Assembly: GCA_016716265.1 (NCBI GenBank)
Contig: JADJWQ010000006.1
Coordinates: 2,595,166-2,659,165, forward strand
From: Planctomycetota bacterium
Lineage (GTDB): Bacteria > Planctomycetota > UBA1135 > UBA2386
Length of the DNA: 64,000 nt
Reading direction: 5' to 3'
Shown: positions 8,963 through 57,713 of the stretch, one piece after another
How positions within the stretch are numbered: the stretch's first letter is position 1
Layout: the number at the start of each line of letters is the position of its first letter
Notes under the pieces: model-generated
What the model was told of the DNA's origin: nothing
Database searches by the model: none
What the model saw: only the letters and a program-made list of their open reading frames with translations
Made by a program: the position numbers and the translations under genes

Positions 8963-9035
8963 GGCCGCGCACTCTACTGGCCCGGACCCGCGGAGCGCTG
9001 CGGCCCTCGGCCTCCGCAACGGAAGAAGAGGTCCG

Positions 9036-11720
9036 ATGCCTCGCCTCGCACTGATGCTCCTGCTGGCGCTGCTCGCGGCCGCGGTCGCGTGGCTCGCGCT
9101 GACCGGAGCGGGGTCCACTGGACCTGCGCCGGCGCCCGTCGACGCACCCGCGGTCGATGGCTCGACGGCGAGGGCGGGAGAGCACCGCGACGCGCACGTC
9201 GAGCCCGCACGCGATGCGCCGAGCCCGACGCCGACCGCACCGGTCCGCGAGCGGGTCGCGACTCCGGTCGTCGACGAGCCGGCCGGCGACGGCCTCGCGA
9301 CGATCGTCGGCCGCTGCGTCGACGAGGATGGCGCGCCGCTCGCCGGCGTCGCGCTCGAGCTGCGCGGCTACGGCGACGACCGGCATGCGGTCACGCTTCA
9401 CGAACTCGATCACGGTCCGATCGACTGGAGCGATCCGCCCCCGGCGCACTCGGACGATCACGGCCGCTTCGAGATCCGCTTCGCGCCGCCACCGCCGTAC
9501 GAGTTCGGCCTCGTCTCCCGCTCCCCCGGTCGGATCGCCGCGAGGACGCAATGGCCTTCGATCCCCGCCGGAGCCCGCATCGACCTCGGCGACGCGGTGC
9601 TGTCGCGCGGCGTGCTACTGCGCGGGATCGTCGTCGATCCGGCGGGGACCGCGCTGCCCGAGTGGCGCGTGTCGTTGATCGGCGCGGGCGGTCCGGGCCC
9701 GACGGCGTCCTCCCCGGTCACGCCGGGCTCCGCGCTCGTGCCGCGCAGGAACCTCGAGCTGACGACCGACGCGGCGGGGGCGTTCAGGAGCGACACGGCG
9801 CTGCCGCCCGGGGACTACGTCCTGTCGACCGCCGGAAAGCTGATCGACCCGCCGGGCCGGGTGGGGCTCGCAGCACCCACGACCGAGCTGCGGATCGTCG
9901 TCGAGCCGTTCCGGCGACCGGAGCAGGTCGGTCCACCGATCGCCGGGGTCGTCACGGACGGCCGCGGTACGCCGATCCCCGACGCGACGCTGCTCGCCGT
10001 GCGGCTCGACCGCCCCGACGGCCGGATCGGACCCGGAGGAATCGGCGTGGGCCGGACCGCGCCCGATGGCGGCTTCCGGATCCCGCAATACACGGGCGCC
10101 GACGAGCGCGGGCTGCGGCTTCGTGTTCTCGCCGATGGCTTCGAGCCCGCCGACACCGGCGAGCCGATCCCCTGGGGCGCGCCCGCCGTGCGCATTGCAT
10201 TGCTCGATGGCCCGAGCCTGACGGTCAACGTCCGCGACGCGACGAGCGGCGCACCGGTCGAGCGGTTCGGAGTGCAGCTCGACGGGCCGGACGCGGTCGA
10301 CACTTCCGGCTTCGTCCGCGGCGACGCCCGCATCCGTGCAGCCGGCCCCCATCCGGGCGGCACGGCGACGATCGAACGCCTGACTCCCGGCCCGTATTCG
10401 CTGCGGATCGTGCCCGCCCCGTCGCTGCAGCTTCCGAAGTCCGATTGGATCAGGCTCGAGATCGAAGCGGGCGTGCCGGCCGTCGTCGACGTCGTGCTCC
10501 TGCCAGACGTCGCGCGCACGATCGTGCTGCGCGATGCCGACGGCGCACCGATCGTGGGCTCGTCCCTCGAGCTCGTGCACCCGCTCGACACCGACCCGGT
10601 CGAGCTCGACACGACGGCCGTGGACCGCGACCAGCCTCCGTCGCGCGCGCCGCGCCGTGCCCGCAGGGTCGACGGCGAGATCCGCTTCGAGCGACAGGGA
10701 GCCGTTCGCGTCGCGACGGCGACGACCGACGCCGCCGGGCGCACGACCCTCGCCGGCCCCGGCGACACCGCCTTCGCGCTGCGCGTGCTGGGCCCCGGAC
10801 ACCCACCGTTCGTCGTGCAGCCGGTCCGGCTCGACGAGCCTGAGCCGCTCGAGATCACCGCACCGAGCGGCGCGACGCTCCGCATCCGCGCGACGCCGGT
10901 AGAGATCGCGACCGCGTACCGGGTCGCCGTCGGGCTCGTCGATCGCGCGGGCCGGCGCAGCTTCCCGAGCGCGCCGGAGTATCGCTTCGGCCCGACCGCG
11001 CCCGACTGGCTGCCTCTCGACGACGACGGCCGCGCGGTGCTGGTGGGCATCCCGCCCGGCCGCTGGGCGCTGCGCGTCGTCACCGTCGGCCACACCGGAG
11101 GATCGGACACCCGAACGCTGATCGAGGAGCTCGAGCTGGCGGCAGGCGAGGCGCGCGACGTCGCGCTCGACCTGAGCGGCGTGGCACCGGCGACCACGAC
11201 GCTCGTCCTCACCTGCAACGGTCGCCCGTTCGAAGGCACCGTCCAATTGCTCGGCTGGCTCGGCGGCGCGAACGACTGGTCGACGCGCAGCCTGGAGACC
11301 GGCGCCGACGGCCGCGTCGAGGTCGAACTCGCTCCCGGCACGTGGCGGACGACGTTGAAGGCCGAAGAAGCGGGCGGCATCGCCGACGTGCGCAGCGAGC
11401 CGTTCCAGATCGGCGCGACCCCGCCCGCCGAGGTCGCGATCCGCGTGCAGTCCGGCCACCGCGTCGTGCGCGTGCTGCGCGCGAACGGCGAGCCGGCCGC
11501 GAACCAGCCGCTCAGCTTCGAGGGCCCGATCGGCAGCAATGCGCGCGCGAACCTCGCCGCGGACGCCGATGGCCGGGCGACGCTGCGCGGCGGCGCCGGC
11601 GCGGTCCGCGTCTTCGGTTCCGTCGGCCGCGGCCCCGACCAGCTGCGCGTGCCGCTCGGCGACGTGCAGCTGCTGCCCGGCGGCGGCAGCGTCGTCGACC
11701 TGCAGCTCCCGCCGTACTGA
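9036..11720 (+). CDS. secreted protein with repeated carboxypeptidase-regulatory-like (CarboxypepD_reg) domains
   Basis: GGAAGAAGAGG RBS-like purine run upstream of the ATG. Signal/anchor MPRLALMLLLALLAAAVAWLALTG. Repeated G-x-V-x-D-x-x-G-x-P ... DG-x-F blocks. Confidence 0.7.
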   Translation: MPRLALMLLLALLAAAVAWLALTGAGSTGPAPAPVDAPAVDGSTARAGEHRDAHVEPARDAPSPTPTAPVRERVATPVVDEPAGDGLATIVGRCVDEDGAPLAGVALELRGYGDDRHAVTLHELDHGPIDWSDPPPAHSDDHGRFEIRFAPPPPYEFGLVSRSPGRIAARTQWPSIPAGARIDLGDAVLSRGVLLRGIVVDPAGTALPEWRVSLIGAGGPGPTASSPVTPGSALVPRRNLELTTDAAGAFRSDTALPPGDYVLSTAGKLIDPPGRVGLAAPTTELRIVVEPFRRPEQVGPPIAGVVTDGRGTPIPDATLLAVRLDRPDGRIGPGGIGVGRTAPDGGFRIPQYTGADERGLRLRVLADGFEPADTGEPIPWGAPAVRIALLDGPSLTVNVRDATSGAPVERFGVQLDGPDAVDTSGFVRGDARIRAAGPHPGGTATIERLTPGPYSLRIVPAPSLQLPKSDWIRLEIEAGVPAVVDVVLLPDVARTIVLRDADGAPIVGSSLELVHPLDTDPVELDTTAVDRDQPPSRAPRRARRVDGEIRFERQGAVRVATATTDAAGRTTLAGPGDTAFALRVLGPGHPPFVVQPVRLDEPEPLEITAPSGATLRIRATPVEIATAYRVAVGLVDRAGRRSFPSAPEYRFGPTAPDWLPLDDDGRAVLVGIPPGRWALRVVTVGHTGGSDTRTLIEELELAAGEARDVALDLSGVAPATTTLVLTCNGRPFEGTVQLLGWLGGANDWSTRSLETGADGRVEVELAPGTWRTTLKAEEAGGIADVRSEPFQIGATPPAEVAIRVQSGHRVVRVLRANGEPAANQPLSFEGPIGSNARANLAADADGRATLRGGAGAVRVFGSVGRGPDQLRVPLGDVQLLPGGGSVVDLQLPPY

Positions 11721-42165: not shown

Positions 42166-42726
42166 CCGACCGCAAGCCGGCGAGCCCTGATGTAAAAATC
42201 GTACGCGGTACCGATCTGAAGTCTGCGGGGCAGCTGTTGCCGGTGGTGTACGACGAGCTGCGGCGGCTCGCGCGGAAGCGGTTGCGTAGTGGCGGGGCGG
42301 TGACGCTCGATGCGACGGCGCTCGTGCACGAGGCATACGCCAGGCTGGTCGTCGACGATGGCGCGTCGTTCCGTGGGCGCGACCACTTCTTCGCTGCGGC
42401 GGCGCTCGCGATGCGGCACGTGCTGGTCGACTGCGCGCGGCGCCGGTCCCGGCTGCGGCACGGCGAGGGGCGGCGACCGGTGACGCTGTCGGGCCACGAC
42501 CTGACGGCCCGCGACATCGACCTGCTCGAGCTCGTGGCACTGGACGACGCATTGAAGAAGCTCGAGAAGCTCGCTGAGCGCAAGGCCAAGGTCGTCGAGC
42601 TACGCTTCTTCGGCGGGCTCTCCAATGCCGAGATCGCACGCGCACTCGACATCAGCGACGCGACCGTCGAGCGCGACTGGCAGTTCGCCCGCGCCTGGCT
42701 GTCGCGGGAGCTGGCCGGAGACCCGA

Positions 42727-42737
<11 letters not shown>
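42162..42737 (+). CDS. ECF-type sigma factor (Ser/Thr-kinase-associated ECF group)
   Basis: LPVVYDELRRLARKRL ... LDATALVHEAYARL ... LSNAEIARALDISDATVERDWQFARAWL are hallmarks of planctomycete-type ECF sigma factors. The ATG overlaps the upstream stop (ATGA). Confidence 0.8.
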
Positions 42738-45576
<2,839 letters not shown>

Positions 45577-45683
45577 CGTTGCCCGCCCGCGTTTTTTCCG
45601 GCTCCGCGTGAGGGTCCCTGCGACGTCGCGGCGTGTCCGAGGTCGAAGCGCGCGGAATGGTCCGCGCCCGATCGAGACCTCCG

Positions 45684-46256
45684 ATGCACACCGTACTCCT
45701 GCCCCGCGTCCTGACGCTCCTGACCCTCGCGACACTCGGCGCCCTCGCCGGCTGCTCGAGGGACGGAGCGGCGAGCACCCAGAAGTCCGACCTCCTGGCC
45801 CGCGGCCGCTACCTCGTGCAGACGATGGGCTGCGCCGACTGCCACTCACCGCACGGGCCGGACGGCGCCGTGCTGCCCGGCCGGGAGCTCTCCGGCCACC
45901 CCGAGTCGGCCCCGCTGCCGCACTGGACCCCGGACATGCTCGAGCAGCACACGCTGGCGACGACCGCCCCGACCGGCACCGCCTTCGCCGGCCCGTTCGG
46001 TCTCAGCGTCGCGTGCAACCTGACGCCGGACCCCGAGACCGGCATCGGCGCGATGACCGCCGACCAGCTCGTCGCGAGCTGGCGCAGCGGCCGCCACTGG
46101 AAGGAGGACCGCAACGTGCTGCCGCCGATGCCGATCCCGGCACTCGCGCACTGCGAGGAGAGCGACATCCGCGCGATTCACGCCTATCTGCACTCGCTGC
46201 CGCCGGTCCGCAACATGTGCCCGCCATCGCGGGTTGCGGGTGCGACCTCGGACTGA
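45684..46256 (+). CDS. c-type cytochrome lipoprotein (single CxxCH)
   Basis: Lipoprotein signal MHTVLLPRVLTLLTLATLGALAGC. Heme-binding CADCH. About 190 aa. Confidence 0.7.
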   Translation: MHTVLLPRVLTLLTLATLGALAGCSRDGAASTQKSDLLARGRYLVQTMGCADCHSPHGPDGAVLPGRELSGHPESAPLPHWTPDMLEQHTLATTAPTGTAFAGPFGLSVACNLTPDPETGIGAMTADQLVASWRSGRHWKEDRNVLPPMPIPALAHCEESDIRAIHAYLHSLPPVRNMCPPSRVAGATSD

Positions 46257-46278: not shown

Positions 46279-47262
46279 TCAATGATTGGCGACAGCCTTG
46301 CGGACGTACGCCTCGGCGGCGTCCAGCGCGGCCTGCACGATCGACAGGCTGCGGGTCGGCGGGGTGTGATAGCCGGCGGTCTTCGTCGTCTTCTGGCGCA
46401 CGATCACGACGTCGATGTCGTCCTTGCGCTGCGTCTCGCGCACGACTCCATTCGGTAGCTTCATATGGGCGGTCGCCTCGAACAGCCGCGCACCGGAGCG
46501 GGCGACGAGGACGGCGTAGCAGTACGGGTACGGCGTCCCCTGCACGCGGTTGATCACGACCTGTGCCTGCAGCCCGTAGAAGGCGGCGGGGCCGTCGGGG
46601 AAGGTGACCGCCAGCTTCACGCCGATCGGTGTGCGCCGCTCGTCGCCACCCGCCATCAGCAGCTGCGCGCCGAGCTTGCCACCGGTCCGGCCGTCGATCT
46701 GCAGCGCCTCGCCGATTGGCTTCAGGCTCCGGGCCTGCAGCACGAGGTCTGGCTTCCGGCTGACCGTGCGCATGCCGCTGAACCACTGCGAGGCCAGCAG
46801 CAGCACTCCGTCCATCCCGACGATCCACGCGAGGTCCGCGGAGAAGCTCCCCGCAGCCACCGTGGCGATGCCGAGCACGAGCAGCGCGACGAGCCACGAC
46901 ACGACGCCCGCACCACTGGTGATGTCGAGGGCGCTCTCGTCCCAGCGACGCATCCGACCGTCGACGAGGAGGATCTCCTGGACCCGGTCGAACGCACAGC
47001 TCTCCCACGCAGCTCCCGAGCGGAAGCCGCGCGGGTCGGTGCGCACGTCGAAGCCGACGACCCACGTCATCAGCAATGCGGCGACCAGCAGTGGCACACC
47101 GATCCACACCGACAGCGTCGCGACCTGCAGGATGACGCCACCTGCGGCCAGCACGAGCGCCCACCGCGTCCGCGCACCGTAGCCGAGCTTGCGGAACCAC
47201 GCGAACTGCAGCAGCGGCTCCGCCCGCTCGGCGGCGACCAGCGATCCGGGCTCTGCGCTCAT
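46279..47262 (-). CDS. hypothetical integral membrane protein (4 TM + soluble domain), third gene of the rSAM operon
   Basis: ATG overlaps the stop of the upstream rSAM gene (ATGA). GGAGGAGA RBS upstream. Hydrophobic helices are followed by a 150-aa soluble domain. Confidence 0.55.
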   Translation of the reverse strand: MSAEPGSLVAAERAEPLLQFAWFRKLGYGARTRWALVLAAGGVILQVATLSVWIGVPLLVAALLMTWVVGFDVRTDPRGFRSGAAWESCAFDRVQEILLVDGRMRRWDESALDITSGAGVVSWLVALLVLGIATVAAGSFSADLAWIVGMDGVLLLASQWFSGMRTVSRKPDLVLQARSLKPIGEALQIDGRTGGKLGAQLLMAGGDERRTPIGVKLAVTFPDGPAAFYGLQAQVVINRVQGTPYPYCYAVLVARSGARLFEATAHMKLPNGVVRETQRKDDIDVVIVRQKTTKTAGYHTPPTRSLSIVQAALDAAEAYVRKAVANH

Positions 47263-48617
47263 CGATCGTCTCCTCCGCCCTGCCGGACGGCGCGCAGCTC
47301 CTCGCAGCCGAGCTGGCGCCAGTACAGCGGACAGGCACCGTTGCAGATGTCGAAGTTGTCGCAACCGCGACAGGTGACGGGCGCCCGCGCCTTCGCCCGG
47401 AAGGCCCGCGCCCGCGGGCTCTGCCAGACGGCGTCGAAGCCGTCGCGCAGCAGGCTGCCGAGCGGCTCGTCGTAGCTGGCGCACGGCAGGACGCTGCCGT
47501 CGGCGCCGATCGACAGCAGCCCGTCGCAGGCCGAGCATCCCTTGTTGCCGAGGCCGTGCGTGATCGGATTGAAGATGCACATCGGCGTCGGCGAGTACCA
47601 CTTGAACTCGACGCCCTCCGCGCGCGCCGCACGTTGCACGGCATCGATGACCGGTCCGACTTCCGCGTAGCGCACGACCAGCGCGTCATCGCGGGCCGCC
47701 GTACCGGTCGGGATCATCAGGTTCATCGAGATCGTGCGGAGCCCGAGCTCGCGGCGCGCGAAGCCGGGAAACCGTGCGGCCTCGCCGACGTTGTGGCGGT
47801 CGAGCGTCGTGTTGGTATTGACGTTCAGGCCAGCGGCCAGGTAGCGCCGCACCGCGGCAGTCGCCTTCTCGAACGACCCCGGGATGCCGGTGATCCGATC
47901 GTGCGTGGCGTCGGTCACGCCCTCGATGCTGACCTGCACCGACTGCAGCCCCGCCTCGACCAGCTCCGTGACACGCCGCTCGTCGCTCAGGATCCCGTTG
48001 GTGATCAGGTTGACGCGCAGGCCGATCGACCGCGCGTATTGCACCATCTCGGCGAGGTCCCTACGCAACGTCGCCTCGCCCCCGGTGAAGCTGACGCTCG
48101 GCACCTGCGCGTCGTTTCGGATCGCGTCGAGCACCCGCCGCACGTCGTCGAGCGTCATCTCGACATCGCTGCCGACCGGATTGCAGGTGCAGTTGCAGCC
48201 GGCGTAGCAGAACTCGCAGCGGGCGTTGCAGCGGTACGTCACCGCGACCTCCGCCATGACCGGCAGCGGCGAGAAGCTCGCCGCGAACGGCTGCTTGTCG
48301 ACCGCCGGCGACTCGTAGGTGTCCGCGAGCCCGTCCTGCAGCAGCTTGCGGACGTCGAGCAGGAACCGCTCGACGTCGCACCAGACGTCCGCGCGGCGAC
48401 CCCAGGGTGCGAGCACCTCGGCGATCGGCACGCCGCGCAGCAGCGGCTCCAGCACGGCGACACCACGCTCGTTGAGGTGCACGGCGCGGTTCGGCCGCTG
48501 GATGAACACGCGATCGACCGCGCGCACGAAGACGTGATCGCGGACGTTCGCAGCCCAGTCATCGACCCAGGCGAGATCGGGAAGTCCGGGCTGCACCGGC
48601 TCGCATCGCACGTCCAT
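47259..48617 (-). CDS. radical SAM / SPASM-domain peptide-modifying enzyme with N-terminal PqqD-like RiPP recognition element
   Basis: CX3CX2C (CNARCEFC). GGE motif FTGGEATL. C-terminal twin-cluster Cys pattern (CSACDGLLSIGADGSVLPC ... CRGCDNFDICNGAC). The N-terminal 110 aa resemble a PqqD/RRE domain (RAVHLNERGVAVLEPLLRGVPIAEV). The ATG overlaps the stop of the upstream gene by 1 nt (TGATG). Confidence 0.85.
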   Translation of the reverse strand: MDVRCEPVQPGLPDLAWVDDWAANVRDHVFVRAVDRVFIQRPNRAVHLNERGVAVLEPLLRGVPIAEVLAPWGRRADVWCDVERFLLDVRKLLQDGLADTYESPAVDKQPFAASFSPLPVMAEVAVTYRCNARCEFCYAGCNCTCNPVGSDVEMTLDDVRRVLDAIRNDAQVPSVSFTGGEATLRRDLAEMVQYARSIGLRVNLITNGILSDERRVTELVEAGLQSVQVSIEGVTDATHDRITGIPGSFEKATAAVRRYLAAGLNVNTNTTLDRHNVGEAARFPGFARRELGLRTISMNLMIPTGTAARDDALVVRYAEVGPVIDAVQRAARAEGVEFKWYSPTPMCIFNPITHGLGNKGCSACDGLLSIGADGSVLPCASYDEPLGSLLRDGFDAVWQSPRARAFRAKARAPVTCRGCDNFDICNGACPLYWRQLGCEELRAVRQGGGDDR

Positions 48618-50320
48618 CAGAACGACCCTCCGCTGTGGCAGGCCGAGTGACACGCGGAATGGCAGGCCGAGTGGCACGCCGAGTGACAGGCCGAGTGACA
48701 CGCTGAATGGCACGCCGAGTGGCAGGCCGAGTGGCACACGTTGACGGGCACCGAGTCGCCCAGGAACGCCTCGTACGACACGTGGTCGACCGCGACGTCG
48801 ATGCCACGGGCGAAGCGGTCGGGTCGCAGCGAACGGTCGTAGTCGGTGTAGCCGTACTGCCAGAAGTACCAGTGATGCCAGCCGTGGTGCCGGTCGATGT
48901 AACGACGCGCGTCGTCGTCGGCGCGCGCCTCGTGCCCTTCGCGTGCGCGCTCCTCCCACACCGGGCCGATCTGCCCGCGCCAGTACTGCTTGGTTGCCTC
49001 GATATCGCAGTCCCAGGCCTTCTTCTGCACGTTCTCGACGACCATGTCGAGCAGGTCCTCGAGCTCGGCCCGGGAGAACGCGCCGTCGTCCTCCGCAGCC
49101 TGGATCATCGCGATCTCGTAGTTCTCGAGCTTCGCGCGGTCGTTCGGGTGTCGCTCGAGCACGCGGACGAGCAAGGGCTCCTCCCGCACCACCTCGAGGA
49201 AGCCGGCCTGCAGCAGTCGCTGCAGCATGACGCTCAGGATGCGCCGGTACGGAATCTCGAGGAAGAACGCGACCTCGATCGGCGTCAGGTCGGTGCAGAC
49301 CTTGCCGGGCTTGCGGAAGGTCGACAGCACGAGCTTCGGCGGCGTCCAGTCGACGCTCGCCCAGCTCACGTCGTCGATCGTGGCCCGTGCGTGCCGCGTC
49401 TCGCGGTGCTTGCTCCGGACGAGGAGCACGAACGCCCCGACCACGATGCCGCCGAGCAGGGCGGCCAGCGCGCGCGTGGTCGCGCGATCTTCGACCGGTT
49501 CACGCGTCGGCGGGCGCGGCGGGCGCGGCGCAGCGGGCTGGATCGGTCCGCGGACCGGTGCACGGGCCGGCGCCGGGCCGGCCGCGCCGGCGGCGCGCGT
49601 CCACGTCGCGGGCTCGAACACCGACGCCCGCACGTACTGCTGGATGTCGAACCGCGCGTCCTTGGCGAGGTTCTCCTGGTGCAGGAGCACCTCGAAACGA
49701 CCGTCTTCCGCCGTTCGGTAGTCGATCCGGTAGCGGTCGTTCATGAACTTCTCGGTGCGGAAGTGCAGCCCGTCGAGGAACGCGGGAGACCGCGGATCGC
49801 CGATCACCTCGGTCGGATAGCGCACGCGCACCGTGGCGTGCTGTAGCGCGTGATCCCAGGTCGACGGCGCCCAGTGGAACACCGCCAGCTCGGTGCCATC
49901 CGCGTCGGTCGTCCGCGCCAGGAAGCCGTGCGCCGCGAAGTCGGTCGCGAAGCGGAACCGGAAGATCACCTCGCCCTCGCGCACTCCGGCGCCGCCGGCC
50001 AGCTCGATGGTCTGCCGGCCGTTCCGATTACCCCGGATCAGGCGGTACTCGAGGCCGGAGGTCGTCGTCGCGCGCCCGAACCCGTCGTCCCAAACCGGCG
50101 CCAGCGAGTCGATCTGCGGCCCCGCGAACCAGAACCCGTGCAGCTCGCCGGTCGCCGCGTAGCACACGGTGTAGGTGACCGACGAGCGGCCGTCGGTGCC
50201 GACGTCGACGTCGACCTCGCACCACACCGGATGGCCCTGCTGCGCCGGCAGCCGCCCGCCGGAAAGGCCGAGAGCGACGATGGCGATGCCAGCCCGGAGA
50301 ACGCTGCCCGAGGACCCCAT
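48617..50320 (-). CDS. bitopic membrane protein (signal peptide, periplasmic domain, Pro-rich linker, TM, cytoplasmic domain) ending in a (Cys-His-Ser-Ala)x9 tail
   Basis: Signal MGSSGSVLRAGIAIVALGLSG. TM ALAALLGGIVVGAFVLLV. The C-terminus is VNV-CHSACHSACHSACHSACHSACHSACHSACHSACHS-GGSF*. Architecture resembles DUF2207-type proteins, but with a Cys/His repeat tail in place of a Gly-rich tail. Confidence 0.65.
   Translation of the reverse strand: MGSSGSVLRAGIAIVALGLSGGRLPAQQGHPVWCEVDVDVGTDGRSSVTYTVCYAATGELHGFWFAGPQIDSLAPVWDDGFGRATTTSGLEYRLIRGNRNGRQTIELAGGAGVREGEVIFRFRFATDFAAHGFLARTTDADGTELAVFHWAPSTWDHALQHATVRVRYPTEVIGDPRSPAFLDGLHFRTEKFMNDRYRIDYRTAEDGRFEVLLHQENLAKDARFDIQQYVRASVFEPATWTRAAGAAGPAPARAPVRGPIQPAAPRPPRPPTREPVEDRATTRALAALLGGIVVGAFVLLVRSKHRETRHARATIDDVSWASVDWTPPKLVLSTFRKPGKVCTDLTPIEVAFFLEIPYRRILSVMLQRLLQAGFLEVVREEPLLVRVLERHPNDRAKLENYEIAMIQAAEDDGAFSRAELEDLLDMVVENVQKKAWDCDIEATKQYWRGQIGPVWEERAREGHEARADDDARRYIDRHHGWHHWYFWQYGYTDYDRSLRPDRFARGIDVAVDHVSYEAFLGDSVPVNVCHSACHSACHSACHSACHSACHSACHSACHSACHSGGSF
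48632..48739. repeat. 12-bp tandem repeat x9 encoding (CHSA)n
   Basis: On the minus strand, units follow the pattern TGY CAY TCN/AGC GCS. The units differ at synonymous third positions (tgc/tgt, cac/cat, tcg/tca/tcc/agc, gcc/gcg). Confidence 0.9.
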
Positions 50321-50371: not shown

Positions 50372-52600
50372 TCAGTAGTCGAGCCGCGCGTGCAGCTGCG
50401 GCGTGGCTCCCCAGCCCGCGATGCAGCTCGCGGTCAGCGACGGCTCGTTGACCAGCCACTGGAACGTCACGCGCGCGCCGATCATCGTCAGCAGGCACGG
50501 CACCTCGAACACGTACGAGGCGGAGCCGAGCACGATCGGGCTGCCGCTGATCAACACCGGTTGCGTGATGACGCAGGCGCCGCACGGGATGTCGAGCCCC
50601 GGCACACCGACCAGGGCGAGCGCGATGTTGCCGGTCGAACCGCTCAGCGTGACGCGGAAGTCCCGGTTGCCGATCGCGAACGGGCCGTCCGTCCCGATCG
50701 TCCCCACCGTCCGAGCCGAGCCGCACTGACCACCGGCGGTCACGATCGAACCACCCGCGCCGAACGCCGAGAAGCGCGTTGCCAGGATCCCCTGGTCTTG
50801 CCCGACAAGTCCGGTTTGGGTGAACAGCAGCAGCGCATCGTTCGAGCTCGCTCCGGATGACCGCTGCGACGCGATGCATGCTCCGCTCACGGCGATTCCA
50901 AACGGACCGACGGGCGTGATCGTGATCGGGAGACCACACGGCATGCAGCGCGGATCGAGCTCCCGCCCCTCGATGCGCGCGGTGCTCGAGGTGGCGACCA
51001 AGAAGAATACGCCATACTTCGAGCCGAGCCATCCGACCGAAGGATAACGCTCCGAGTAGGTCGGATCGGTAGCGATCGCGAGAACGGGGCTCGCGGTCAC
51101 CGGTGGGCGACCAGGGTCCGCGAAGACCAGCCGTCCGTACAGATTATAGTCGCCGGTGCCGTCATCGCGCTTCGCCCACAGGACGAGGCCGCCACTGGTG
51201 GAGGATTCCACCGAGACCTCGTAGAAGATGCGATTGACGCTCGTGAACGAATCGAGGTAGAGCGGGTTGGAGACAGGAGCGCCCCGTGCGTCCACCTCGA
51301 TGACGACTACGGCCGACTGCAGGAAGTTGAACTGACTCCAGGCGATCAGCGCCCGATCACGGTCGTATCCCACATCGACGTCCAGATAATCGAGAGCTCC
51401 GCTCGCGAGGATGCTGGTCTGCCAAGGAACCGGCGCGGACAGACCGACCGTGACCGCGGTGCTGTAGACTCCCATCGCCTGGCCCGTGGTGGGATTCTTG
51501 GGGATCCACGCAACGCGGGCCCGATCGGATTGCGGGTCGCCACCCGCAGCCAGCTGGAGGATCGGCGAGAGCGACAGCGTCACCTGACCCGAACGCAAAG
51601 GTGATCTGGGATCGACGGACTGGCAGTACAGCCCGGTGTCGCCGCCGTACACGACCAGGAATCTGCTGTATGCGGCGACGTACACCACCTGCACGACGGG
51701 GGAAGCGTTCGGTCCGAACTGGGCAAGCCGGATCGGTGACCCTGCCGACTGGCCGGTCCAGTCCAGCTTCATGATCCAGACCTCCGGGTTCTGGCCAAGG
51801 AACGGATTCCCCGAACGCGTCCACCCAACGAGGTAGTTGTTTCCCGACGGCGCGTAGGCGCAGTCGATTTCCGCGGGCGCGTAGCCGGGGTTGATCGACG
51901 TCACGATCGAGCCGACCAGCGGATCGAGCGTCAGGGGGTAGCTCGCCGCGTCGACGAAGCTCCCTGGCAGCTCGAGCCGCAGCGTCCGACCGTCGAGCCG
52001 CAGGAGGCCCGCGACCGACGCGCCCTGGGCGTCGACCCCGGTGACCGCGCCGATCGACACACCGCCACCGTCCTCACCGCGGAGCTGCAGCGTCCCGTCC
52101 GTGGCGAGCTCGGTCTGGAGCTCGGTGTGCAGCGACGCCTCGACGATCAGGTCGCCGGAGCCCGCGGGCCGTTGCTCGAACACCAGCGTCCACTCGAGCC
52201 CGTCCGGCCGCACTTCGAAGCACTCGCGCACGCCTTCCGTGCGCTCGAACACCGCGCACGCACCGTCCTCGGCCGGCTCGACGCCGGCCGGCACCCCGGC
52301 GACCCGCGTGCCGTCCGCTCGCCGGATCTCACCCAGCTCGATGTCGAGCGCCGCGCTGCGGCCGCCATCGACGCCGGCCGACGCAAACGCCACGACGCCC
52401 GCGCCGAACCTGGCGGCGTAGTCCTGGCCGCGGGCAGTCAGCGCGCCGGCCGGATTCCGCTCGAGCGTCACCGGCGGCACCCAGGATCCGTTGATCCGGA
52501 CCGGGTCGAGCGCACGCTGCGCGAGCGCGGGGCAGGTCAGCAGAAGGATCGTCAACGCGATGGCATCGCGCTGAACCGTGCGATGGGGAGATCTGGCCAT
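50372..52600 (-). CDS. secreted hypothetical beta-rich protein with the shared C-terminal module
   Basis: Signal MARSPHRTVQRDAIALTILLLTCPALAQ at the internal ATG 52600. Protein-like composition over 740 aa. Confidence 0.6.
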   Translation of the reverse strand: MARSPHRTVQRDAIALTILLLTCPALAQRALDPVRINGSWVPPVTLERNPAGALTARGQDYAARFGAGVVAFASAGVDGGRSAALDIELGEIRRADGTRVAGVPAGVEPAEDGACAVFERTEGVRECFEVRPDGLEWTLVFEQRPAGSGDLIVEASLHTELQTELATDGTLQLRGEDGGGVSIGAVTGVDAQGASVAGLLRLDGRTLRLELPGSFVDAASYPLTLDPLVGSIVTSINPGYAPAEIDCAYAPSGNNYLVGWTRSGNPFLGQNPEVWIMKLDWTGQSAGSPIRLAQFGPNASPVVQVVYVAAYSRFLVVYGGDTGLYCQSVDPRSPLRSGQVTLSLSPILQLAAGGDPQSDRARVAWIPKNPTTGQAMGVYSTAVTVGLSAPVPWQTSILASGALDYLDVDVGYDRDRALIAWSQFNFLQSAVVVIEVDARGAPVSNPLYLDSFTSVNRIFYEVSVESSTSGGLVLWAKRDDGTGDYNLYGRLVFADPGRPPVTASPVLAIATDPTYSERYPSVGWLGSKYGVFFLVATSSTARIEGRELDPRCMPCGLPITITPVGPFGIAVSGACIASQRSSGASSNDALLLFTQTGLVGQDQGILATRFSAFGAGGSIVTAGGQCGSARTVGTIGTDGPFAIGNRDFRVTLSGSTGNIALALVGVPGLDIPCGACVITQPVLISGSPIVLGSASYVFEVPCLLTMIGARVTFQWLVNEPSLTASCIAGWGATPQLHARLDY

Positions 52601-52864
52601 GGCAGCTTCGTCGAGGGAGTCGAGACCGCGCTCCCGCCGCGCGCCGGGACCGGGCCGAGCCAACGGCTCCGACCGGTCCCATCAGCGCTACGTGCGGTCG
52701 CGCGAGGTCCCAGCGCGGCAGCGCCGCCGATCCGTCATCCCGTCCGCAAGTTTTTCCTCCTGACGACCGCCGACCGGGCCGGGTCGCCGCGAGGCCCTCA
52801 CCTCCCACGATCCCGTGAGGGTGGCGCGACCCGGAGCGCGTGTGCCCCGGCGGAGCACGTCGAG

Positions 52865-55800
52865 ATGACCATCACCCCGCCCCCACCGCAGAGCCGCTGG
52901 CTAACCGCCGCCCTCGCAGCGAGCTGTGTCGCGCTCGCCCCCGCCCAGTCGATCGTCCGCGACATCCGCACCACGCCGGGCCCGCTCGTTCCGCAAAGCA
53001 ACCCGGGCGAGTTCGTCGCGCTCGGGTCCATCGCGGTGTTCGTCGCGACCAGCGAGTACGGCACCGAGCTGTGGCGGACCGACGGCACCGATGCCGGCAC
53101 CTACGTGCTGCGCGACATCGAGCCGGGTCCTGGCTCGTCGAACCCGCGCGACCTCCGCCGCGTCGGGAATCGCGTGTTCTTCAGCGCCGAGGTCCAGGGC
53201 CTCGGCCGCGAGCCATGGAGCACCGACGGCACGCCGGCGGGCACCGTGCTGCTCGGCGACCTGCAGCCTGGCGCGGGAACCTCGCAGCCGACCCCGGCAA
53301 TCGAGTTCCGCGGTCGCGCGGTGTTCGCCGCCCTCGACGGCGTGCACGGCTTCGAGTACCGGATCAGCGACGGCACGCCCGCCGGGACCTCGCTGATGTT
53401 CGACCTCGTGCCCGGCAACGGCAGCGGCGCATCGGCCTCGTTCTGCGCACTCGGCGACCGCCTGATCCTCAGCGCGGGGCTGCCGGGCGTCGGCCAGGAG
53501 CTGCTCAGCTCCGACGGCACGCTCGCCGGCACGTCCGTGCTGTTCGACATCCAGCCCGGCCCGAGCGCGAGTCGGCCGGCGGCATTGACCGTCGCCGGCG
53601 ATCGCGTGTTCTTCGTGGCCACGACGCCCGACGCGCTCGGCGTCGAGCTCTACGTGACCGACGGCACGCCTGCTGGCTCCCGCTTCATCGCCGACGTGCG
53701 TCCGGGCGGAGCGAGCCCGGGCATCACCGCGATGACAGCACTCGGCCGCGGCGTCGTGTTCGCGGCCGACGACGGCACCCACGGCGTCGAGCCCTGGTTC
53801 TCCGACGGCACTGCCGCGGGCAGCTTGCTGCTGGCCGACCTCGAGCCCGGCAGCGGCAGCAGCAACCCGGAGCAGCTCGTGGCGATCGCGGCCGGCCGCG
53901 CGGTGTTCCGCGCGACGACGACCGCCACCGGCGGCGAGCTGTTCGCGACCGACGGCACGCCGCAGGGCACCGCTCTCGTCGCCGACCTCCTGGCCGGCCG
54001 CGGTGGCTCGAGTCCCTCCGCGCTGGTCCCCGCGCTGGGCGGCGCCGTGTTCGCCGCCGCGGACACCGCGGCCGGCATCGAGCCATGGTTCACCGACGGC
54101 ACCGCTGCGGGAACGCGCCGGATCGTCGACCTGCGGCCGGGGACGTCCGGCAGCGCACCGACCGCGTTCGCCCCGGCACTCGGCGGCGTCGTGTTCCGGG
54201 CGGTCGCGCCGGACGGCGGCACCGAGCCGTTCTTCACCGACGGCACCACCGCCGGCACGCGGATGATCGCCGACGCCTACGCGCGCGTCGGCAATGGCGA
54301 CCCGGTGCTGCTCGGCGCGGCCGCCGGCGACCGCCTGCTGTTCGAGGTCGTCGACGAGACCGGCAGCCGCCAGGTGTGGAGCACCGACGGCACCGGTCCC
54401 GGCACGTTCGCCATCTCGATGCCGCCCGGCAGTCCGCAGGTCGCCAGCTCCAAGCCAGTGACGTTCCGCAACGAGCTGTGGATGGGCTGGACCAGCAACC
54501 AGGGCGGCCGCGAGCTGTGGGCGAGCGACGGCACCGTGGCCGGGACGCGGCGCATGGTCGACGTCTGGGTCGGGCCGAGCTCGTCGGAGGTGTCGGCGCT
54601 GCGCACGGCGGGCGACCGCTTGTGGTTCCAGGCGCGCGACGGCCTGCTGCCGGGCTACGGACCGTTCGTGTCCGACGGCACGCAGGCCGGCACGACGCGC
54701 ATCGGTCCGCTGTCCGGCCCGGAGGTGCTGACCGCGGCCGAGGAGTTCACCGCCTTCGCCGGTCGCGTCGTGTTCCGCGGCACCGACAATGCAATGGGCC
54801 CCGAGCTGTGGCAGAGCGACGGCACGCAGGCCGGAACGGTGCGCTGCTTCGACCTGGTGCCCGGCTACTTCGGCTCGAGCCCGGGCTCGTTCGCGGTGCT
54901 CGGCGGGCAGCTCCTGTTCGCCGCGCGCGACAACAGCGTGTCGACCGAGCTGTTCGCCTGGGACGGCGTCGCGAGCCTGCCGACGCTGGTCCGCGACATC
55001 TTGCCGGGCAGCGGCAGCTCCGAGCTCGCCGAGCTGACACCGGTGCTCGACCGCGTCGTGTTCCGCGCGCGCACGCTCACGGACGGCGAAGAGCTGTGGG
55101 TGACCGATGGAACGACCGCCGGCACGGTCCTGATCGCGGATCTCGCGCCGGGCAGCGCGAGCTCTCGTCCGCGCGAGCTGACGCGCTCGGGAGCACGCGT
55201 GTTCTTCTTCGCGGACGACGGCCGGAGCGGCGTCGAGCTGTTCGTGACCGACGGCACGCCGCAGGGCACGTCGCAAGTCGTCGATCTGTGGCCCGGCCTC
55301 GCGTCGGGCGTGCGCACCGGCTCGCTGACGCCGGTCGGCGACACCGGGCTGGTCGCGTTCGCCGGCACCGACGGCGTGAGCGGGTTGCAGGTGTGGCTGT
55401 CCGACGGCACCGCCGCCGGCACGCGCGCGGTCGGCCCGGTGCGCCCGCGGCCCGGTGCCGGCTTCGCGTGGATCGGTCAGCTGCGCGCGGTCGGCGCGTG
55501 GCTCCTGTTCACCGCCGACGACGGCATCCACGGCCGCGAGCTGTGGCGCATGTCGTTGACCGGCCAATCGGTCGCCGCCGCACGCAACTTCGGCGTCGGC
55601 TGCGTCGGCTCGACCGGCACCGACCCGCGGATCGGAGCGGTCGCGACGCCGACGGTCGGCGAGGCCGGCTTCGGCGTCACGCTCGACCGCGCGCTGCCGA
55701 ATGCACCCGCCGTCCTGAACGGCGCCGTCGCCGCCGGCGCGCTGCCGATCGGCACATGCACGCTGCTGGTCGCGCCGCCGGTCCTGCCGCTCGCGACGGT

Positions 55801-55966
55801 CGCGACCGACGGCTCCGGCCGCGCGCTGTTCGCATTGCCGATCCCGAACGACCCCGCACTGCTCGGCGGGACGTTCCACGCGCAGTGGATCGTCGCCGAT
55901 CCGGGTGGCCCGCTGTTCGGCGTCGCGACATTGAGCGACGGACTGCAGGTGCTGATCGGGCGCTGA
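52865..55966 (+). CDS. secreted ELWxxDGT-repeat protein with the shared C-terminal module
   Basis: Signal MTITPPPPQSRWLTAALAASCVALAPAQS. About 17 tandem units of the (E/Q)LW(R/S/T)(T/S)DGT(A/P)AGT type. Confidence 0.75.
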   Translation: MTITPPPPQSRWLTAALAASCVALAPAQSIVRDIRTTPGPLVPQSNPGEFVALGSIAVFVATSEYGTELWRTDGTDAGTYVLRDIEPGPGSSNPRDLRRVGNRVFFSAEVQGLGREPWSTDGTPAGTVLLGDLQPGAGTSQPTPAIEFRGRAVFAALDGVHGFEYRISDGTPAGTSLMFDLVPGNGSGASASFCALGDRLILSAGLPGVGQELLSSDGTLAGTSVLFDIQPGPSASRPAALTVAGDRVFFVATTPDALGVELYVTDGTPAGSRFIADVRPGGASPGITAMTALGRGVVFAADDGTHGVEPWFSDGTAAGSLLLADLEPGSGSSNPEQLVAIAAGRAVFRATTTATGGELFATDGTPQGTALVADLLAGRGGSSPSALVPALGGAVFAAADTAAGIEPWFTDGTAAGTRRIVDLRPGTSGSAPTAFAPALGGVVFRAVAPDGGTEPFFTDGTTAGTRMIADAYARVGNGDPVLLGAAAGDRLLFEVVDETGSRQVWSTDGTGPGTFAISMPPGSPQVASSKPVTFRNELWMGWTSNQGGRELWASDGTVAGTRRMVDVWVGPSSSEVSALRTAGDRLWFQARDGLLPGYGPFVSDGTQAGTTRIGPLSGPEVLTAAEEFTAFAGRVVFRGTDNAMGPELWQSDGTQAGTVRCFDLVPGYFGSSPGSFAVLGGQLLFAARDNSVSTELFAWDGVASLPTLVRDILPGSGSSELAELTPVLDRVVFRARTLTDGEELWVTDGTTAGTVLIADLAPGSASSRPRELTRSGARVFFFADDGRSGVELFVTDGTPQGTSQVVDLWPGLASGVRTGSLTPVGDTGLVAFAGTDGVSGLQVWLSDGTAAGTRAVGPVRPRPGAGFAWIGQLRAVGAWLLFTADDGIHGRELWRMSLTGQSVAAARNFGVGCVGSTGTDPRIGAVATPTVGEAGFGVTLDRALPNAPAVLNGAVAAGALPIGTCTLLVAPPVLPLATVATDGSGRALFALPIPNDPALLGGTFHAQWIVADPGGPLFGVATLSDGLQVLIGR

Positions 55967-56012
55967 GCGGACGCCGGGCCCGGCTGATCGACGGGGTCCC
56001 GCCGCGAGATGG

Positions 56013-57713
56013 CTATCTCCCGTCGCCGCTCACGAACGGCGCCACCAGCTCCGCCATGAGCGCATACCCGCGATCGGTGCAGTGGATCTCGTCGACGAAC
56101 CAGTCCGACCAGGCCGTCGTGGCGAGCTCGCGCTCGAAGCGCGCGTGCATGCTGACGAACGGGACGCGCAGCTCCGCGGCGAGCGCGGCCACCACGTCCT
56201 CGTGGCGCGGCATCGCGAACGGGTAGCCGAGCAGGACCACGCGCGCGCCGGCGGCGCGCCCGAGCCCGACGATCATCCGCAGATGACCATCGAGGACACG
56301 GAACACGTCGTCCTCGCCCGCAGTCGCGCGGCGCAGGTCCTGGCCGAGCGCGGCGCGGATCGGCGCCGCCACCGGCGCCCGGTCGACGGCACGCTGCAGC
56401 GCCGTCACGTCGGCACCGGCCGCCACCGCGCGGCGCAGCGCGGCGAGCACCTCGTCCTGCCCGGCGCCGTGCTCACGCGCGCTTGCGGCGTCCGCGATCG
56501 CGCCAGCGGGGTCGAGCGGTGCCTCGGCGACCGCGCGCTCGAGCAGCAGCAACGCACGGGTCCACGCCGAGCCCTCGGCGGCGATGGCGGGGCCGAGCGC
56601 CGCGGCCGTCGCGCTGCGCGCCGCCGGGTCGGGATCCGTATCGACCACGATGCGCCAGCAGCCGACCGACCCGGGCCTGCTCGCCACGACCTCCCGCGCG
56701 ACGCGCCGGGCCCCAGTGCTCGAGCCGGTCCAGGACTCCGCGATCGCGAGCTGCTCCCCCACCTCCGGATCGGCCCCCGATGCGTACGCCGTCCGCAATG
56801 CCGTGACGTGCACGTCGGCTGCATCGCGGTCGCCGCGGTCCGCGCGGATCATCGCCAGTCGCGCATGCGCGCGCGCCGCGTCGGCGCCGTCGAGCGCCGC
56901 CTCGAGCCGGGCGACCGCCTCGTCGACACGGCCGTCGTCGAGCAGGTCCTCGGCGGCCTCGAGACCCGAGCTGTCCTGGGCCAGCCCCCGCCGGGCACGC
57001 TTCAGCGCCGGCCAGCCGACGATGCCGAACCACAGCTCGCCGGCGGCCATCCGCCAACGCACGGGCACGACCTCGCCGTCCGGACGCGTGACGAGGATGC
57101 GATCGCCGGCGAGCGTCCACGGCATCGGTAGCCCACCGATCACGGCCGTGCCGTCCGGGCCGAAGTAGAAGTCCTGCGCGCCGACGTGCCAGGCACCGAC
57201 GAACGGCGTCGCGCTCGCGCGCTCGGCCGGCGCACCCTGGAGCTGTCCTTCGACGTCGGCGGACAGCAGCGCCAGGAGGCGCCGCGTGCGCCACCGGAGC
57301 GGGAAGGCATCGCCGCCGAGCGCAGGCGGGGCCGACGGCAGGGGCCGGCTCCACCCGTCGTTCCAGCCGACGAGCACGCACAGCACGTCGGGGCGCAGCG
57401 ACGCGAGCTGGTCGGGCAGCCGTCGCAACACGTCGGCCGAGTTCTGGCCGGGCCAGGCGCCGCCGACGACGCTCGTGTCGCCGCCGCGATCGCTCAGCAG
57501 TCGGCCGAGACAGGCCGGCCAGGCCCGGTCGCGCGAGGTCGCGCCGAGGCCGTAGGTCAACGAGTCGCCGACACAGAGCACGACGCGGCCTGCCGGTCGC
57601 GTCGCTTCGCGCTCCCGGCTCCACTGCACGTAGGCGAGCACCTGGAGCGCCGCCTCGAGCACGACGAGCGTCGCCGCGACGCAGACGAGGATCGCTACCG
57701 CACGGCGTCGCAT
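56013..57713 (-). CDS. SGNH/GDSL-family hydrolase with inserted TPR-like helical region
   Basis: N-terminal TM. GDS block VLCVGDSLTYG. C-terminal DxxH block (FVDEIHCTDRGY). A 300-aa Ala-rich helical insert lies between them. Confidence 0.65.
   Translation of the reverse strand: MRRRAVAILVCVAATLVVLEAALQVLAYVQWSREREATRPAGRVVLCVGDSLTYGLGATSRDRAWPACLGRLLSDRGGDTSVVGGAWPGQNSADVLRRLPDQLASLRPDVLCVLVGWNDGWSRPLPSAPPALGGDAFPLRWRTRRLLALLSADVEGQLQGAPAERASATPFVGAWHVGAQDFYFGPDGTAVIGGLPMPWTLAGDRILVTRPDGEVVPVRWRMAAGELWFGIVGWPALKRARRGLAQDSSGLEAAEDLLDDGRVDEAVARLEAALDGADAARAHARLAMIRADRGDRDAADVHVTALRTAYASGADPEVGEQLAIAESWTGSSTGARRVAREVVASRPGSVGCWRIVVDTDPDPAARSATAAALGPAIAAEGSAWTRALLLLERAVAEAPLDPAGAIADAASAREHGAGQDEVLAALRRAVAAGADVTALQRAVDRAPVAAPIRAALGQDLRRATAGEDDVFRVLDGHLRMIVGLGRAAGARVVLLGYPFAMPRHEDVVAALAAELRVPFVSMHARFERELATTAWSDWFVDEIHCTDRGYALMAELVAPFVSGDGR

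Follow-up and report, generated by a model that had tools for sequence, protein, structure and literature searches.

The 64,000-nucleotide stretch analyzed here (hereafter the window; positions 2,595,166 to 2,659,165 of contig JADJWQ010000006.1, assembly GCA_016716265.1, from a Planctomycetota bacterium) carries on its minus strand three overlapping genes, the first of which ends in a tandem Cys-His repeat. Gene A (48617..50320, defined as an open reading frame [ORF] with its translation) encodes a 567-residue single-pass membrane protein with the repeat as its C-terminal tail; gene B (47259..48617) encodes a 452-residue enzyme assigned by Pfam to the radical S-adenosylmethionine (SAM)/SPASM enzymes; and gene C (46279..47262) encodes a 327-residue protein in which four transmembrane helices are predicted and which ends in a beta domain. 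The stop codon of gene A and the start codon of gene B share one base (TGATG), the start codon of gene C overlaps the stop codon of gene B (ATGA), and both the A-B and the B-C pairs are translationally coupled. The coupled radical SAM/SPASM gene is the defining context of the tail, and one that does not figure in the reading of the repeat proposed by a first-pass annotation of this DNA.

Translated from the minus strand, the end of gene A reads ...VPVNV followed by eight complete CHSA units, a ninth CHS, and the residues GGSF before the stop codon, V-(CHSA)x8-CHS-GGSF corresponding to residues 528-567 of the protein. The nine 12-bp Cys-His units map to 48632..48736 and the conserved C-terminal cap GGSF (mostly C-V-S-G-G-[SA]-x in relatives) to 48620..48631, both on the minus strand. 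The first-pass annotation had described nine CHSA units at 48632..48739; the repeat is real, but its ninth unit is CHS followed by Gly, and the interval given spans nine units when these are read as (V/A)CHS, not as CHSA. Tandem Repeats Finder reports the array at 48635..48737 with a period of 12 (8.6 copies, score 129, 79% matches) and again with a period of 36 (score 143, 85% matches), the CHSA array being the top-scoring of the 93 arrays in the window (runner-up, 76). Every codon variant listed by the annotation is present (TGC six times and TGT three times; CAC seven times and CAT twice; TCG six times and TCA, TCC and AGC; GCC and GCG four times each), and its statement that the units differ almost only at synonymous positions proved accurate, since pairwise comparison of the eight full units gives 56 nucleotide differences, every one of them silent. 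Of the 36 single-base changes possible per unit only 8 are synonymous, and the chance of an all-synonymous outcome is approximately 5e-4 for five independent changes and 7e-8 for eleven. At the DNA level the units share 83% identity on average, and no word longer than 17 nt is repeated exactly. Units 4 and 8 are identical, units 3 and 7 show one difference, and units 2 and 6 differ by one base; the better score of the 36-bp over the 12-bp period and the near-identity of the unit pairs 3-4 and 7-8 suggest that the array grew partly via duplication of multi-unit blocks. A codon-usage test for deliberate scrambling of the DNA was suggestive, not significant, on the window alone: T-ending Cys and His codons make up 5 of 18 in the tail versus 7 of 48 in the three gene bodies (p=0.28), and the G+C content at third codon positions is 0.83 versus 0.90-0.92.

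The same pattern extends across a large family. An exhaustive profile hidden Markov model search of 1.84 billion representatives returned 499 relatives of A at E<=1e-3 and 109 at E<=1e-30, making evident a family size of which a word-indexed protein search, with only 8 relatives, gave no indication. A scan of metagenome contigs with an alignment of the tail protein yielded a single locus at a contig end, and the corresponding scan with a radical SAM alignment yielded 80 loci, 69 of which display a same-strand upstream ORF ending in a Cys-His repeat. The other 11 have 543 nt or less of upstream DNA, and all 69 loci with enough of it thus carry the tail; TGA/TG is the commonest junction between genes A and B. 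The enzymes encoded beside the tails are 45-68% identical to the product of gene B in the window, and the taxa named as sources are Planctomycetota, Gemmatimonadota, Desulfobacteraceae and Acidiferrobacteraceae. Among 84 distinct tails comprising 576 internal units, position 1 of the unit is Cys in 100%, position 2 is His in 99.3% and position 4 is Ala in 99.7%; position 3, the sole variable position, is Ser in 80% and Asp in 16% of units, and rarely Asn, Ala, His or Gly. Of these tails, 75 have CVSG as their terminal unit and the remaining nine, which make up the window's clade, have CHSG, with G-[SA]-x after it; the most frequent tail is NV-CHDA-(CHSA)6-CVSGGSH.

Overwhelming evidence for purifying selection on the tail peptide, which the first-pass annotation had postulated from the window alone, comes from comparing the DNAs that encode it. 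This commonest tail, of 35 residues, is encoded by 19 distinct DNAs from other metagenomes that differ on average by 22 synonymous changes per 108 nt and by no nonsynonymous change, the 39-residue tail of the window is encoded identically at seven other loci in spite of 15-31 synonymous changes in 120 nt, and at one repeat position the serines of the family draw on all six codons, TCN and AGY alike. The retention of identical tail peptides across many different DNAs in other organisms likewise upholds the view that the tail is functional. The CHSA tail is thereby a textbook example, and a clean one, of tandem repetition preserved in the peptide even as synonymous substitutions scramble the underlying DNA.

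The number of units is similarly constrained. Tails of eight units account for 48 of the 84 and tails of nine for another 19 (67 of 84 together), within a family range of 3-11, and the eight- or nine-unit structure recurs in over 60 contigs assembled independently in unrelated projects, which in practice excludes an assembly artefact, as the annotation had argued. That so many tails keep eight or nine units next to enzymes only 45-68% identical lends no support to its expectation that strains would probably differ in copy number at this locus. Recent expansion by slippage, an artefact of assembly or a contingency locus free to vary in length could account for a tandem array that is perfect at the protein level, for the assembly of a close relative (L003; protein 69% identical) with only three units, be this a real difference or an assembly effect, and for the three to 11 units of distant members. 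Set against these observations are the 83% identity of the DNA units with a longest exact repeat of 17 nt and exclusively synonymous differences; the recurrence of the structure in more than 60 assemblies despite flanking genes that retain only 45-68% identity; and the fact that 12-bp units cannot shift the reading frame. We therefore regard this explanation as highly improbable, and the array does not qualify as a simple-sequence contingency locus either by the identity of its units or by the spread of their number.

Frameshifted relatives, in which the annotation would have seen an argument against a functional tail, do exist (L001, L004, P0148 and P0206), but they look like errors. In L001 (Planctomycetota, GCA_027493625.1), whose tail has nine units, gene A is split at 8990-9040 by a single homopolymer frameshift, 'gcgttttcctcgag', and in L004 it is split at 985-1000 by a single frameshift at a C-run; in both, the frameshift lies upstream of the repeat, the frame of which is open when read from the DNA. 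P0148 and P0206, available as proteins only, have a tail region that reads as a frame-shifted translation of the repeat. All four probably reflect sequencing, assembly or gene-calling errors and not decay, real pseudogenization being a possible explanation for L001 and L004.

We note further variation around the repeat. Several clades (e.g. P0157, P0176, L065 and L071) display a second conserved Cys-rich element before the repeat, such as CFxGCFTH(S/T)A or ACHSACY(V/A)HTA, where the window's clade has ...VPVNV; this element may provide extra crosslink sites, metal sites or a recognition element. P0272, a distant family member of 624 residues, has a Cys-rich tail mixing CHxA with a second repeat, CDSCHSS.

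The protein encoded by gene A, by its predicted topology a type-I membrane protein, consists of a Sec-type signal peptide (approximately residues 1-27), a beta-rich extracytoplasmic domain (residues 30-245; 49586..50233, minus strand), a Pro-rich linker, a transmembrane helix (approximately residues 283-302; 49415..49474, minus strand; helix 279-317 in the model) followed by the basic stretch RSKHRETRHAR, a cytoplasmic domain defined by alignments and by modelled secondary structure (residues 318-527; 48740..49369, minus strand), and the tail. Because the protein has a Sec signal peptide, a single transmembrane helix and a basic stretch after this helix, its C-terminal half, tail included, is predicted by the positive-inside rule to be cytoplasmic, the compartment in which the radical SAM enzyme would also reside. 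The overlapping CX3CH strings of the repeat correspond to a known variant of the heme c motif. Heme c is attached outside the cytoplasm, and heme attachment at these strings was ruled out on the basis of the predicted topology of the tail, which rests on the signal peptide, the single helix and the basic stretch. The AlphaFold2 model of the protein has a mean predicted local distance difference test score (pLDDT) of 76; its beta domain (residues 30-245) is confident, and the tail appears in it as a helix of low confidence (pLDDT about 36). FRKPGKV and KAWDCDxEAT, the motifs best conserved across the family, both fall in the cytoplasmic domain, where the model displays helices at 347-353 and 358-371 and strands at 375-379 and 384-387; this helix-helix-strand-strand element is possibly winged-helix-like, the sole support from any tool being a match of one family member to Pfam HTH_27 (E=0.017).

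No Pfam family was matched above its cut-off by gene A, and no NCBIfam family was matched at all. The extracytoplasmic domain nonetheless appears to be a distant relative of the N-terminal domain of DUF2207 (PF09972) proteins, with which gene A of the window aligns at E=0.014 and 16.1 bits, below the gathering score of 24.4; 14 of 23 gene A relatives have DUF2207 matches at E<=1 (best, 4.6e-5). Consistent with this relationship, the beta domain is similar in fold to the N-domain found in M1 aminopeptidases and in ribophorin I, and the order of signal peptide, N-terminal beta domain and membrane anchor is shared with DUF2207 proteins. The latter have Gly/Ser-rich C-termini, of which the end of one relative of A, L042, CVSGGGGSSGGGGSSGSW, is reminiscent. 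The C-terminus of this relative (L042:4302-4600, PDWJ01000206.1), ...ACVSGGGGSSGGGGSSGSW, consists of the Cys-His repeat and then a Gly/Ser-rich extension, a hint that a low-complexity Gly/Ser-rich tail was the precursor of the repeat tail or gave way to it. We know of no DUF2207 protein described as having a Cys-His repeat tail or a radical SAM partner.

The product of gene B is a member of the radical SAM superfamily and of its SPASM subfamily by both motif and domain content, with Pfam matches to PF04055 (5.9e-26; 92 bits versus a cut-off of 29.5) and PF13186 (2.4e-10; 41 bits versus 21.5). The radical SAM cluster motif C130-x3-C134-x2-C137 (CNARCEFC; 48207..48230, minus strand), of the CX3CX2C type that ligates the SAM-cleaving [4Fe-4S] cluster within a partial TIM barrel, is invariant in 19 homologues and is followed, beyond this interval, by the conserved C141 and C143. 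Eight Cys are conserved by alignment in the SPASM region (47331..47579, minus strand; Pfam SPASM match, residues 363-422), namely C347, C361, C364, C379, C416, C419, C425 and C429, the last four forming CX2CX5CX3C; SPASM domains typically hold some seven Cys, which serve two auxiliary clusters. Approximately 1,900 homologues were found at E<=1e-40, and proteins identical to B, annotated as 'radical SAM protein [Planctomycetes bacterium]', and to the product of gene C are on record from one and the same Planctomycetes metagenome-assembled genome.

Which reaction B catalyzes cannot be read from homology, since none of the best 25 of its 83 NCBIfam matches reaches the curated cut-off. These 25 are generic (AhbD, PqqE, NirJ, sactipeptide maturases, WgkB, mycofactocin and HxsC4), fall far below their thresholds (StsB, 93 bits versus 625; SkfB, 78 versus 300; HxsC4, 78 versus 500) and include no cyclophane-synthase model. 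The nearest solved structures, SkfB, PqqE, the anaerobic sulfatase-maturating enzyme (anSME), SuiB and CteB, are all of peptide- or protein-modifying enzymes. B also has an N-terminal extension of approximately 100-112 residues (residues 14-115; 48273..48578, minus strand) that is conserved in the family and is a possible substrate-recognition domain, akin to the recognition element (RRE) of systems for RiPPs (peptides synthesized ribosomally and modified post-translationally). RREs are winged helices of the PqqD kind located in or beside the enzyme. The extension matched nothing in Pfam even at E<=10, and its sole relevant match among solved structures was the lasso-peptide RRE protein TfuB1, at a sub-threshold E of 0.47.

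The proximity of a tail with nine cysteines to an enzyme with three predicted clusters raises the question of whether the tail serves the enzyme, as a sacrificial sulfur donor, a scaffold for iron-sulfur cluster delivery or a membrane anchor recruiting B. Some radical SAM enzymes, biotin and lipoyl synthases among them, use up the sulfur of a cluster, and a donor role for the tail would have a counterpart there. SPASM enzymes, however, are not known to us to require protein sulfur donors, the strict conservation of His and Ala and the fixed register of the units would be unexpected in a simple thiol reservoir, and the homologues of B carry a full set of cluster ligands of their own. We consider such a role very unlikely.

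The converse relationship, in which the enzyme acts on the tail, finds support in the composition of the cassette. When all window ORFs were searched against the loci by tblastn, only A, B and C proved to be conserved together (67, 82 and 72 loci, respectively), and the A-B-C cassette also occurs on a 1.1-Mb Planctomycetota contig on which the remaining neighbours are unrelated. Gene C matched no protease or transporter family in Pfam or NCBIfam, and had no NCBIfam match of any kind. The tail stands out as the obvious substrate because the enzyme is always present and coupled to it, because nothing else resembling a substrate is conserved, because other SPASM enzymes act on short tandem motifs, and because tail and enzyme are predicted to share a compartment. 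We thus consider it reasonably likely that the tail is the substrate of B, with one crosslink formed per unit; the repeat is probably where a hitherto undescribed protein modification takes place, as opposed to a sequence prone to slippage.

A mechanism can be proposed on this basis. The repeat would be the substrate, or "core", region of a three-gene protein-maturation cassette, in which B would dock on the C-terminal region of A, abstract a hydrogen by means of a 5'-deoxyadenosyl radical and install one intramolecular crosslink in each four-residue unit. About eight small rings would result, arranged as a rigid ladder at the membrane's inner face, and the product of gene C would presumably be a partner of mature A. 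The residues left unmodified, whether His or Cys, would still be there to form an array active toward metals or in redox reactions, which suggests that the end product itself has such an activity.

Four systems provide a precedent for the action of radical SAM enzymes on short repeated motifs. HaaB, a radical SAM/SPASM enzyme of the triceptide group, bonds His-C2 and Ala-C-beta within an HAA motif (PMC11499958); TvgB acts on TVGG repeats (PMC9062424); PapB connects Cys to Asp or Glu by thioethers (PMC9413430); and the radical SAM enzymes HxsB and HxsC, together with HxsD, mature HxsA, a protein of more than 200 residues that contains His-Xaa-Ser repeats, every HxsA repeat being required for function in the HXS antiphage system (PMC13128918). 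The CHSA cassette appears to belong to none of the triceptide, ranthipeptide, TVGG/TvgB and HXS systems, and its resemblance to each of the three compared in detail is partial.

As in triceptides, every CHSA unit contains an H-x-A with His at 99.3%, Ala at 99.7% and a free middle residue, in agreement with the aromatic-X2-X3 motif, and as in HaaA/HaaB a single radical SAM/SPASM enzyme is encoded next to a substrate that may contain several motifs. Unlike in HaaA, the motifs are bracketed by invariant Cys and the putative substrate is the tail of a 567-residue membrane protein instead of a short leader-core peptide. With ranthipeptides and sactipeptides (PapB, SkfB and CteB) the cassette shares a Cys motif adjoining a radical SAM/SPASM enzyme, SkfB and CteB being among the nearest solved homologues of B and StsB and SkfB among its NCBIfam matches. 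It departs from them in that B scores far under the maturase cut-offs and falls outside the family, that no small precursor, protease or transporter is encoded, that the conservation of His has no counterpart, and that the tail offers no acidic acceptor and no acceptor that could be assigned. The substrate of PapB, PapA, is said to contain repeated in-line CX3D motifs. The HXS system likewise combines a full-size protein carrying a short His-containing tandem motif with radical SAM maturation by neighbouring gene products; its H-x-S register is absent from C-H-S-A, however, the motif here being C-H-x-A, and it relies on two radical SAM enzymes and HxsD where the present cassette has one SPASM enzyme, such that the latter cannot be counted as an HXS system. 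Nor is it a classical RiPP cluster, given a 567-residue membrane precursor and the conservation of only A, B and C, with neither protease nor exporter. A further candidate is the CXXX-repeat peptide maturase system of TIGRFAMs (TIGR04115), in which a peptide with Cys at every fourth residue is joined by a maturase and an accessory protein. The tail does have a Cys at every fourth residue; that model is absent from the best 25 of the 83 matches of B, and A and C have no NCBIfam match. Formylglycine formation of the anSME type was rejected, C-H-S-A lacking the C/S-x-P/A-x-R context and anSME being only a generic structural relative of B. Searches of the literature for the tail sequence or its motif (CXXX repeat, CHSACHSA, CHxA and related) returned no paper.

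Should the tail be the substrate of B, two chemistries with analogues in these systems agree with the pattern of conservation. The first is a thioether linking the sulfur of each Cys to a carbon of the residue at +3 (Ala, or Gly in the last unit of both clades), which would explain the invariance of Cys and of a small residue at position 4 and to which we would give slightly less than an even chance. The second, which seems to us somewhat less probable again, is a three-residue cyclophane joining His-C2 to Ala-C-beta on each H-x-A and leaving the Cys thiols free; the terminal CVSG unit, in its usual form, lacks both the His and the Ala that such a link would use.

Several observations weigh against the proposal that the tail is a radical SAM substrate. 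The case for modification is made from genomic data throughout, the precursor would be a 567-residue membrane protein, the cassette holds no protease or exporter in contrast to classical RiPP clusters, the N-terminal extension of B is not recognizable as an RRE, and, as stated above, no curated family reveals the chemistry of B. Either chemistry, moreover, leaves one invariant residue unexplained, His in the case of the thioether and Cys in that of the cyclophane. Some thioether synthases bind the substrate Cys through an open iron site of an auxiliary cluster, and a weak objection is that the eight SPASM Cys of B could fully ligate both auxiliary clusters, thereby removing such a site.

The low-confidence helix modelled for the tail is, finally, compatible with a plain metal-binding segment. 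In this alternative, the tail would be an unmodified Cys/His metal-binding or redox-sensing element comparable to the His- or Cys-rich tails of metallochaperones or to sequences of the metallothionein kind, and B would act elsewhere, on another part of A, on the product of gene C or on a small molecule. Cys and His are classical soft-metal ligands and are both invariant side chains of the unit, residues i and i+4 would align on the modelled helix, and both the genomic nature of the case for modification and the lack of a protease or exporter in the cassette are in keeping with an unmodified tail. Metal binding by itself leaves unexplained, however, why position 4 is Ala in 99.7% of units when position 3 is free, why the number of units is held at eight or nine, and why a coupled radical SAM gene co-occurs at every scorable locus; nor does the cassette contain any other conserved element resembling a substrate on which B might act. 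We therefore view an unmodified metal-binding tail as unlikely and favor the tail as substrate of B.

Other features of the window lie outside the conserved cassette. Past gene C is a 207-residue cytochrome c-like ORF (45633..46256, plus strand; CADCH motif; Pfam PF00034, 6.7e-5) and, beyond it, a 983-residue Ser/Thr protein kinase with a long TPR region (42625..45576, plus strand), neither of which is kept beside the cassette in other loci. A GDSL-type lipase/acylhydrolase gene (56013..57713, minus strand) is located 5.7 kb upstream of gene A; a gene of this type is also found directly upstream of the gene A homologue in a distant relative (L005:6705-7820), which may be coincidence. The window also contains very long ORFs of 763 to approximately 1,100 residues with no Pfam match (50372..52663, minus; 52840..56226, plus; 52901..55879, minus), and several long ORFs of this high-GC window overlap on opposite strands. 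Rfam yielded no match in the window. PADLOC yielded none for A or C and only generic viperin-type (pVip) matches for B, and assignment of the cassette to an antiphage defence system was not retained.

Taken together, these results point to an uncharacterized but widespread three-gene radical SAM maturation cassette in which gene order, overlaps, co-occurrence and selection on the peptide are observed whereas modification, its chemistry and function are hypothetical, and of which no description was found in Pfam, NCBIfam or PADLOC (none above cut-off) or in the literature. Our working hypothesis is that it falls among the systems in which radical SAM enzymes mature repeat substrates, here on a DUF2207-like membrane protein. 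Radical SAM/SPASM enzymes acting on repeated motifs have often yielded new peptide chemistry, including cyclopropylglycine, cyclophanes and thioethers, and the present family is both large (about 500 representative tail-protein clusters at 50% identity and about 1,900 close radical SAM homologues) and endowed with an almost perfectly invariant core that is easy to synthesize. It differs from classical RiPPs in that the proposed substrate is the cytoplasmic tail of a 567-residue membrane protein. If the tail is indeed a substrate of B, the cassette would enlarge the small set of proteins matured by radical SAM enzymes (sulfatases, QhpC and HxsA). A more speculative and, in our estimation, improbable extension of this proposal is that a ladder of rings on the eight or nine consecutive C-H-x-A units, a protein-derived structure not known before, leaves imidazoles or thiols in an ordered row that acts as a metal-binding or an electron- or redox-relay element, the array linking the cytoplasm to the extracytoplasmic sensing or binding domain of A. 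Were this the case, a full-size membrane protein would here carry post-translational modification of a new class, and DUF2207-type proteins would gain a first functional handle.

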